Sequence record: PZ452583.1
Source: a phage
Strand: one strand, 5' to 3'
Length of the DNA stretch: 64,000 bases
The notes below the pieces were generated by a model that was not told where the DNA came from, searched no databases, and saw only the letters and a program-made list of their open reading frames with translations. Shown here one piece after another: positions 55,054 to 56,393 of the stretch. Position numbers and translations under genes: made by a program. Position 1 is the first letter of the stretch. Every line of letters begins with the position of its first letter.

Positions 55054-55833
55054 TTAATTAAAAATATATACTTCATCAGTTCCATTCTTTTCTTTGGAAT
55101 GATATATGTTAAAGACGTATTTTTTATTAAGATGCTTAACATTATATTTTTTAGACCATTCTTTAAGAAGAGTGTTTTCCTTTCCGTGATGCTCTAAAAC
55201 ATTCGACAGTCCAAATTTTATTCCTCTGTCATTTAAAGAATCTAAAAGATTTAAAAGGTCTTTTTCTTCTTCTTCTGACCAAAATTTATTATAATCAGCA
55301 ACTGTTATAAGATATGGAGGGTCCACATATACAAAATCGCCATCTAGAATTTTGACATCTTTAAAATGCAATGAACTAAAGATTATTTTATCACAATTTT
55401 GTTTAAAGTGATTAAAGCGTTTTTCACTATTTTTGTTTATAGTTCTTTTTCCAAACGGAGTAGTAAAATTTCCTTTATCGTTTATACGAATCATATTACT
55501 AAATCCGTGAAAATGAAGAACATAAAGTAAAAGAGGATCTCTAGTTTTATTATAATCTTCACGTAATTTCAAAAACTCTTCTTTTGATGTTTTTGATAGT
55601 TTGTATTGCTTTATTACTTTTAAAACGTCATCCCATGATACATTAATAAGACGCTTATACATTTCAATAATTGGGGTTTGAATATCATTAGCCAATACAG
55701 GGCCATTGACGTTCAAAGACACTGATAAACCTCCACAAAATAAATCCACGAATCTGTCATATTTTGGAAAGTGAGGCTTAAGTTCAGGTAATAATGATTG
55801 TTTATTACCTGTATACGCGATAGCTCCTAGCAT
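55054..55833 (-). CDS. dam: Dam DNA adenine methyltransferase (GATC)
   Basis: 259 aa; DPPY motif; near-identical to recalled T4 Dam. Confidence 0.95.
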
Positions 55834-56393
55834 TATATTCTCTCATTTATTGCAGCAAAAAATGAATTATACAATTCATCATCATATGTATTTGATAATA
55901 ATACTAACACGTTTTGTGATTTAGCATATTCATTAAACCTTGCTTGGATGGTTGGATTATCAGTAAATGATTCTCTTTTTGTCCATTTATTACGTGGATA
56001 ATATCCGCATGGCAAAAAATCTAATATCATCAATGACACAGGGTTTTCAGTTTTTGTGTATTCTTTTAATTTCTCTTTATCTTCTAAATATATTCCAACC
56101 GAATCAATAGCTGTACCTCCACCAACTTGGTGTTTAATTTCAATTATATGCTTTTTACCGTTGCGAGAAATAACAATATCAAATCTTCTAGTACGCTTCT
56201 TAGTTATAAAATTAGAGCAAAACAAATTATTTGATTTTTCAGTATCATCAATTAAAACCATTTTTTCTTGATAACTAACTGAACAATCAGTGAAATATTC
56301 TTTTACTTTATTAAGTATGAAATTTTCAACTACGGCAGATATTTTATATGAATCTCCGTTTAAAGCCATTTCATGCACAATTTTATTAATCAT
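55833..56393 (-). CDS. Hypothetical 186-aa protein with PD-(D/E)XK-like motif, translationally coupled to dam
   Basis: GAGGA SD; stop overlaps dam start; motif RRFDIVIS...HIIEIK; own early promoter. Confidence 0.6.

Follow-up and report, generated by a model that had tools for sequence, protein, structure and literature searches.

A small PD-(D/E)XK nuclease-like gene overlapping dam in T-even phages, possibly one half of a mobile restriction-modification-like module

The window analysed here, a stretch of 64,000 nucleotides (nt) from phage sequence record PZ452583.1, belongs to a T2-like Tequatrovirus, whose dam-primase region has 98.6% identity with Serratia phage PhiZZ30 and 98.3% with T2. 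On the minus strand this region reads gene 61 primase (56681..57709), an open reading frame (ORF) of 186 amino acids (aa), dam and gene 56 dCTPase. The 186-aa ORF (55833..56393, minus strand, ATG start), assigned by sequence, profile and structure searches to phrog_8706 and to a restriction-endonuclease-like group of PD-(D/E)XK proteins, is the subject of this report. Its TAA stop codon (55835..55833) has one base in common with the ATG (55833..55831) of dam (55054..55833, minus strand), which encodes a D12-class N6-adenine DNA methyltransferase (Pfam PF02086, E-value 7.9e-51). The resulting TAATG (55831..55835, minus strand; CATTA on the plus strand) reads as a signal for translational coupling. 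A Shine-Dalgarno sequence, GAGGA (56401..56405, minus strand), is located 7 nt 5' of the ORF start, and further upstream a consensus scan and inspection of the sequence predict a T4-early-type sigma-70 promoter-like site (56419..56448, minus strand), made up of a -35 element GTTTAC(T), a 17-nt spacer and a TG-extended -10 element TATTAT. An earlier note on this DNA had described an ORF of this size with an early-type promoter, a GAGGA ribosome-binding sequence and a stop codon overlapping the dam start, and both the coordinates and the TAATG proved right in every detail. The promoter-like match is by itself no evidence, because the scan returned 11 sites, fewer than the 14 that chance would give. 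In L003, L004/L006, L009 and L011, four other strongly diverged lineages, the homologous gene is likewise preceded by the pattern GTTTAC-N17/18-TAtAAT.

Chance cannot account for the ORF, since its product matches phrog_8706 at an E-value of 8e-116, has full-length homologues at 29-63% identity, and displays a ratio of nonsynonymous to synonymous substitution rates (dN/dS) of ~0.19 against the 63%-identical homologue, a comparison in which dS is near saturation. These alignments indicate that the gene is under purifying selection over long distances. The function of phrog_8706 is listed as unknown in PHROGs, and we found no description of the 186-aa ORF in the searchable literature.

A reasonably confident AlphaFold2 model built from eight homologues (predicted local distance difference test, 79; predicted template modelling score, 0.78) has an alpha-beta-beta-beta-alpha-beta core, the fold of the PD-(D/E)XK superfamily. 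Within this model D72 falls on the second strand (E66-77), E85 and K87 on the third (E80-88), and E23 on helix H15-33. Together these four residues make up an active site of the PD-(D/E)XK type, and they are invariant in 9 sequences spanning 29-100% identity. The codons for D72...E85-I-K87 (56133..56180, minus strand), invariant in the family alignments, are followed on their 3' side, to about position 56100, by those for H88-Q89 and G93-T94-A95-I96-D97-S98, which also remain invariant in an alignment reaching down to 29% identity. The signature RRFDIVI...IIEIK, which had earlier been read as PD-(D/E)XK-like, is indeed present, and its D72, E85 and K87 are the same in all homologues.

Nearly all the matches that Foldseek returned from the PDB are PD-(D/E)XK-type nucleases, which are also present among the annotated matches in viral models. 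The weak matches obtained in profile libraries are almost all to restriction or PD-(D/E)XK families, namely Pfam DpnII, BanI, HSDR_N, PDDEXK_11 and SfsA, and those in PADLOC are to 'Type II restriction enzyme' and DpdD. Sequence searches of the PDB with the protein, the family profile and a core fragment gave nothing significant, and a search of NCBIfam gave noise alone. On the strength of the model, the 186-aa protein is predicted to have a PD-(D/E)XK restriction-enzyme-like fold with an intact and invariant catalytic set, and its size is about that of the smallest Type IIP enzymes. A relationship to MutH or Sau3AI, which have the PD-(D/E)XK superfamily and a presumed link to GATC methylation in common with the phage protein, was rejected, as neither was matched in any sequence or structure search. 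Of the nucleases named for comparison in the earlier note, therefore, MutH and Sau3AI fell away, DpnII was matched below cut-off, and the nuclease-like fold itself was borne out.

The closest structural likeness among well-known enzymes is to EcoRI and MunI, with the catalytic residues in register. In the hhalign alignment D72/E85/K87/Q89 lie on MunI D83/E98/K100/Q102, at a probability of 11%, which is below significance. Two short motifs run in the same direction: E-I-K-H-Q and G-T-A-I-D-S of the phage protein parallel E-A-K-H-Q and G-N-A-I-E-R-S of EcoRI, as well as E-I-K-R-Q and G-N-A-H-E-R-S of MunI, the sequences of both enzymes having been verified on PDB chains. This motif resemblance fits the structural result and may serve as a lead; it is no proof of family membership, and searches of the phage protein against Pfam EcoRI/MunI and PDB sequences gave no match. 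There are also clear differences. Where EcoRI and MunI have Asn and Arg in the GNAxER motif, residues that read the AATT core, the phage protein has Thr and Ser, and it lacks the loop of 13-22 residues that separates the two motifs in these enzymes. In place of an AATT-specific methylase, the partner of the phage protein is a GATC Dam. MunI, at 202 aa, is of similar length.

The sole characterised family to which sequence searches point repeatedly is that of the GATC-specific restriction endonucleases DpnII/MboI/LlaDCHI; their companion methylases, which likewise act at GATC, are of the Dam/DpnM lineage, as is the phage Dam. Pfam DpnII (PF04556) is matched by 6 of 8 members of the phage family, the best being P0009 (22.5 bits, E-value 8.3e-5), with the window protein at 15.7 bits; the best PADLOC REase_II match among the members has an E-value of 5.3e-6. 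When 7.3 Gb of plasmid DNA were searched by tblastn with a family member, two matches were obtained in all, both to Lactococcus plasmid genes at E-values of ~0.5: one is the restriction gene of pSRQ700 (R.LlaDCHI) and the other a second Lactococcus gene that aligns identically. The pSRQ700 gene, which belongs to PF04556 and is named LlaDCHI by one source, encodes a protein 27% identical to the phage protein over 118 aa, with RRFD, IIE and GGG(S/T) aligned; the catalytic core of the phage protein, through to G93-S98, lies opposite RRFD...IETN..GGGGS of R.LlaDCHI. The two differ in length (304 aa for R.LlaDCHI, 186 aa for the phage protein), in the active site, where LlaDCHI has E-T-N and the phage protein the canonical E-x-K, and in gene order, the pSRQ700 nuclease gene following two methylase genes and the phage nuclease gene preceding a single methylase gene under one promoter. 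Taken together, the sequence matches make a distant relationship of the phage protein to PF04556 plausible.

The family itself has remarkably few members. When 1.84 billion representatives were searched exhaustively with HMMER, 12 proteins were obtained; the same set was recovered by two word-indexed searches of 5.8 billion clusters, and repeating the profile search after inclusion of the distant members added no new ones. All contigs long enough for judging are T4-like phage DNA. Each family member examined is encoded directly upstream of a D12-class methylase that is 53-73% identical to the window Dam, the two genes, depending on the lineage, abutting or overlapping by 1, 4, 7, 20 or 35 nt; no member was found in the family searches beside any gene other than a dam-type methylase. 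The identities of the nuclease-like protein and of Dam to their window counterparts fall in parallel (63/71, 56/73, 43/63, 35/56 and 38/53%).

This pair occurs in at least three genome contexts. The first, primase-X-dam-dCTPase (61-X-dam-56, X being the nuclease-like gene), is found in Tequatrovirus and in two other lineages; the second, rIIB...X-dam...topoisomerase gene, in Klebsiella Jiaodavirus KPV15; and the third, on one metagenomic contig, has X-dam followed by a gene for a 726-aa protein, which from its size and a weak HATPase_c match we take to be rIIA-like. In every context examined, nuclease-like gene and methyltransferase gene are adjacent and inherited as a unit, in the manner of Type II restriction-modification (R-M) systems. 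Together with the predicted nuclease fold, this constant adjacency supports the R-M-like pairing with dam that had been proposed from the window sequence. A further argument, that KPV15 has cytosine DNA, was dropped: it had been based on Kp15virus, which lacks the genes for hydroxymethylcytosine (hmC) (PMC5219037), whereas KPV15 is a Jiaodavirus.

Contig L003 and the Marfavirus Klebsiella phage vB_Kpn_F48 (L094) are related across the primase side. In F48, the slot between the primase region and a gene-56-like pyrophosphatase gene, in which L003 has nuclease-like gene and dam, is filled by an unrelated gene for a 250-aa protein (3257..4009) with a weak match to an LprI domain (E-value 1e-4). 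Accessory genes are swapped at this position. Base composition also sets the pair apart: G+C content is 27.4% in the nuclease ORF and 28.7% in dam, as compared with 36.1% in the dCTPase gene (54475..55008), 34.2% in the primase gene and 35.2% in the window, and this common low value suggests that the ORF and dam may have been acquired jointly. On account of the parallel divergence, the multiple contexts, the F48 slot and the low G+C content, we consider that the pair behaves as a two-gene cassette.

Among Tequatrovirus records the ORF is present in ~148 of ~509 (~30%), T2 included. As the earlier note had suggested, we compared the dam-61 interval of the window with that of other T-even phages, and found the ORF with a frameshifted C-terminus in T2 and a deletion in T4. 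The note had allowed that T4 might carry a homolog at this position; the gene is in fact absent from T4, where merely its last ~26 codons are left. In a three-way alignment of window, T4 and T2, the segment missing from T4 corresponds to 55913..56451 of the window (minus strand, ~0.54 kb) and takes in the promoter, the Shine-Dalgarno sequence and the first ~160 codons, with the junction in an imperfect repeat ATCA(T/C)AAA. Because T4 keeps this 3' remnant of the ORF, its allele is a deletion, and not the ancestral state of an insertion in T2. Miner and Hattman, comparing T2 with T4 in 1988, reportedly noted an 'insertion' of 536 bp ahead of T2 dam, to which no function was assigned. The 1988 GenBank entry of T2 dam (M22342.1) contains the ORF, unannotated. 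One T2 record labels the ORF as head outer capsid protein, which is evidently an annotation error; in all other annotated records examined it is hypothetical.

The lesion in T2 lies in a homopolymer within the final codons of the ORF, which in the window is a run of six T (55861..55866, minus strand; compared with T2, T4 and KarlGJung). The C-terminus of the window protein, FAAINERI, is conserved, being comparable to FxAIKERL in distant homologues. In T2, five T replace six, FAAINERI becomes LLQ, and the frame ends 13 nt before dam; the T4 remnant has the same run of five. KarlGJung has an independent internal deletion of 356 bp, which leaves promoter, ATG and the C-terminal third in place, in addition to a run of eight T. 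The runs of five (T2 and the T4 remnant) and of eight (KarlGJung) are two different slips in one homopolymer with an equal consequence for the frame, and the T6 run is possibly a hot spot for mutations by which the nuclease gene is turned off. A fourth case, G4500, shows a -1 shift in an A-run, in which a homopolymer sequencing error is possible. dam is intact in all four (T4, KarlGJung, G4500 and T2). In the cases examined, therefore, it is the nuclease gene, and never dam, that has been repeatedly deleted or frameshifted.

The Dam protein of the window is a T2-type allele, which differs from T2 Dam by the single substitution E53T and is 97% identical to T4 Dam. T2 and T4 Dam are specific for GATC. 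Through its identity to these enzymes the window Dam is a methyltransferase of defined specificity, as is expected in a Type II R-M pair. T4 Dam (L001, 2347..3126) departs at six residues (S20, N26, Q139, Y140, D188 and Q209) from the T2-type consensus common to the window, T2, KarlGJung and G4500, and T4 has the largest partner-gene deletion among these; since it is the single such genome examined, we draw no conclusion from these residue differences. We also considered whether the type of Dam allele goes along with presence of the nuclease gene, and dropped the idea, as KarlGJung, with its ORF deleted, still has a T2-type Dam.

We rate as slightly better than even the chance that the 186-aa ORF supplies the nuclease, and Dam the methylase, of a mobile Type II R-M-like module carried by phages. 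From the sequence matches described above, the nuclease of such a module would probably be GATC-specific. Host RNA polymerase would make a single early bicistronic mRNA from one promoter, and ribosomes ending the nuclease ORF would restart at the overlapping dam ATG, so that no nuclease would be produced without methylase. Dam would then mark GATC in phage DNA, and the small MunI-like nuclease, probably a homodimer, would cut DNA that lacks the Dam mark, most likely at GATC. The DNA of enterobacterial hosts is already Dam-methylated, and the likely targets would for this reason be other phages, that is, the genomes of co-infecting phages or of dam-defective relatives. The pair might in this way act as a selfish or competitive cassette, and loss of the nuclease gene would leave Dam as an 'orphan' of the T4 type. 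Indeed, the 'orphan' Dam of T4 looks like the survivor of a phage-borne R-M pair after deletion of the nuclease gene.

Several observations weigh against such a module. At the level of sequence, the phage protein has no significant similarity to any characterised restriction enzyme. All scores to PF04556 remain under the Pfam gathering cut-off of 23 bits, and the match spans profile positions ~143-235 of 278, so that the full-length architecture of these enzymes (~280-300 aa) is not present: the N-terminal part of DpnII enzymes, some 150 residues, is missing from the phage protein. Profile-profile comparison by hhalign with a DpnII-family alignment gave a probability of 31%, a weak result that is partly due to the low diversity of this alignment, which was assembled from relatives at >=75% identity and from streptococcal genes at 69-79% identity found in a scan of contigs. 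At the level of biology, enterobacterial hosts are Dam+, which leaves a methylation-sensitive GATC enzyme without an obvious host target, and the glucosylated hmC DNA of T-even phages blocks most Type II enzymes. Methylase-deficient mutants of T2 are viable, which argues that the T2 allele spares unmethylated T2 DNA, with the qualification that this very allele of the ORF is frameshifted at its C-terminus. At the level of genomes, ~70% of Tequatrovirus records are without the nuclease gene, which is therefore dispensable; its frequent loss shows that this holds under many conditions. Among the ORF-positive genomes inspected, a subset of the ~148, none combined an intact ORF with a broken dam.

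The composition of the window is equivocal in this respect. Over positions 1..64000, GATC is by a wide margin the most depleted of the 4-nt palindromes, with 72 occurrences observed and 213 expected from trinucleotide frequencies (observed/expected ratio 0.34), the next lowest being TCGA (0.63). Such a depletion is compatible with a long association with a GATC nuclease, and it is ambiguous because GATC is also known to be depleted in enterophages without such a gene.

We regard as doubtful the far-reaching proposition that many T-even phages carry a working and self-contained R-M weapon, in which a minimal MunI-like enzyme would cut unmethylated GATC even in hydroxymethylcytosine DNA and would destroy co-infecting phages or dam-defective relatives, the orphan Dam of T4 and the strong depletion of GATC in T-even genomes being its legacies.

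Patchy presence among close relatives, as seen in the Tequatrovirus records (~148 of ~509), and adjacency to dam would likewise be accounted for if the ORF encoded a free-standing endonuclease of the homing type, with a target site in or near dam, that spreads by repair-copying, like SegF beside gene 56. As with the seg and mob genes, a small nuclease gene is here present or absent between conserved genes of near-identical genomes. A homing gene would be expected to leave clean empty sites, and none was found: T4 and KarlGJung keep different fragments of the ORF, and ORF-less alleles are for this reason best read as internal deletions of a resident gene. Nor does homing sit well with the co-divergence of nuclease and Dam, with order and overlap kept down to ~30% identity, or with the fact that the pair is the sole constant in the three contexts and that F48 has another gene where L003 carries both. 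Unlike the seg and mob families, moreover, this family is never found beside other genes. The phage protein also differs in fold class from Seg and Mob, which are GIY-YIG and HNH enzymes, and in structure and sequence it comes nearest to Type II restriction enzymes. On balance we judge homing to be unlikely.

The conserved catalytic residues could belong to an active PD-(D/E)XK nuclease with some other job, whether structure-specific cleavage, repair, recombination or non-specific degradation of DNA or RNA, whose gene would have its operon in common with dam but no relationship to it based on methylation. The exclusive linkage of the gene to dam makes this a poorer fit, and we hold it to be distinctly unlikely.

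Host DNA could become the target if the enzyme were a methylation-dependent nuclease like DpnI, cutting Dam-methylated GATC in the cytosine DNA of plasmids and of the host chromosome while glucosylated hmC shields the phage genome; co-expressed Dam would then ensure that the target DNA is fully methylated. Such an enzyme would have an abundant substrate and a reason for its early co-expression with Dam, and breakdown of host DNA is a known trait of T-even phages. For this purpose, however, strict coupling to the phage dam would be needless, as host Dam already methylates host DNA, and EndoII and EndoIV of T-even phages already serve to attack cytosine DNA. In addition, no search revealed a similarity to DpnI or to methyl-directed families, and the weak sequence link that exists is to DpnII/LlaDCHI, which cut unmethylated GATC. 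A DpnI-like role is thus very unlikely.

That the protein is inert, either a protein of nuclease fold that controls methylation through binding to DNA or Dam (a regulator role had been named in the earlier note) or a decaying remnant without function, would agree with the dispensability and frequent loss of the gene and with its shortness beside the DpnII-family enzymes, but is scarcely credible in view of the invariance of E23/D72/E85/K87 across 29-100% identity, residues that inactive nuclease folds usually lose, of the long-term purifying selection expressed in the dN/dS of ~0.19, and of MunI, whose 202 aa show that such a size is enough for an active enzyme.

The R-M-like module that we favour has counterparts in other viruses. 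Chloroviruses encode R.CviAI/M.CviAI, which act on GATC, and phage P1 encodes EcoP1I; in both, the virus carries a nuclease together with the protecting methylase, which is the same concept as the one proposed here, and CviAI has adenine methylation of GATC in common with it as well. The carriers of these systems are an algal virus and a temperate phage, whereas the present pair resides in virulent T-even phages with glucosylated hmC DNA and Dam+ hosts, and the host chromosome therefore cannot simply be the target. T4 Dam is the textbook phage 'orphan' methyltransferase, whose biological role has been unclear for decades. If the proposal is true, its origin and retention would be explained as those of the surviving half of an R-M cassette, with T4 derived by deletion; virulent T-even phages would be added to the few viruses that carry complete R-M systems, the role of which would probably lie in competition of phage against phage; and biochemistry would gain a new family of very small restriction enzymes, which might be adapted to modified DNA or able to act on it. 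What is new here is a very small nuclease family in a Type II R-M-like pair, in the unusual setting of virulent T-even phages and of the archetypal orphan methylase. The hypothesis, which is founded on computation, would alter the view of Dam in T-even phages.

The remaining features of the locus concern its flanks. The plus strand carries, in the interval that separates the 186-aa ORF from gene 61, an ORF for a hydrophobic protein of 66 aa (56484..56684; phrog_2024, E-value 1.4e-31); it has a strong ribosome-binding site (AAAGGAGG) and is convergent with gene 61, overlapping the end of that gene by 4 nt. Position and orientation of this ORF are conserved in T4 (unannotated in NC_000866), L003, L006-L008, KarlGJung and G4500, and it probably encodes a small membrane protein, with expression from the late strand. 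Inside this ORF, on the opposite strand and downstream of gene 61, a terminator-like hairpin, ATGGCATTAACAAGTGCCAT, is followed by a T-run (56499..56518, minus strand); it would insulate the nuclease-dam unit from transcription of the primase gene. On the other side of the locus, just downstream of gene 56, two small ORFs of 68 and 81 aa (53843..54391, minus strand) form a T2-type arrangement, at the position between gene 56 and soc where T4 has the homing endonuclease gene segF.

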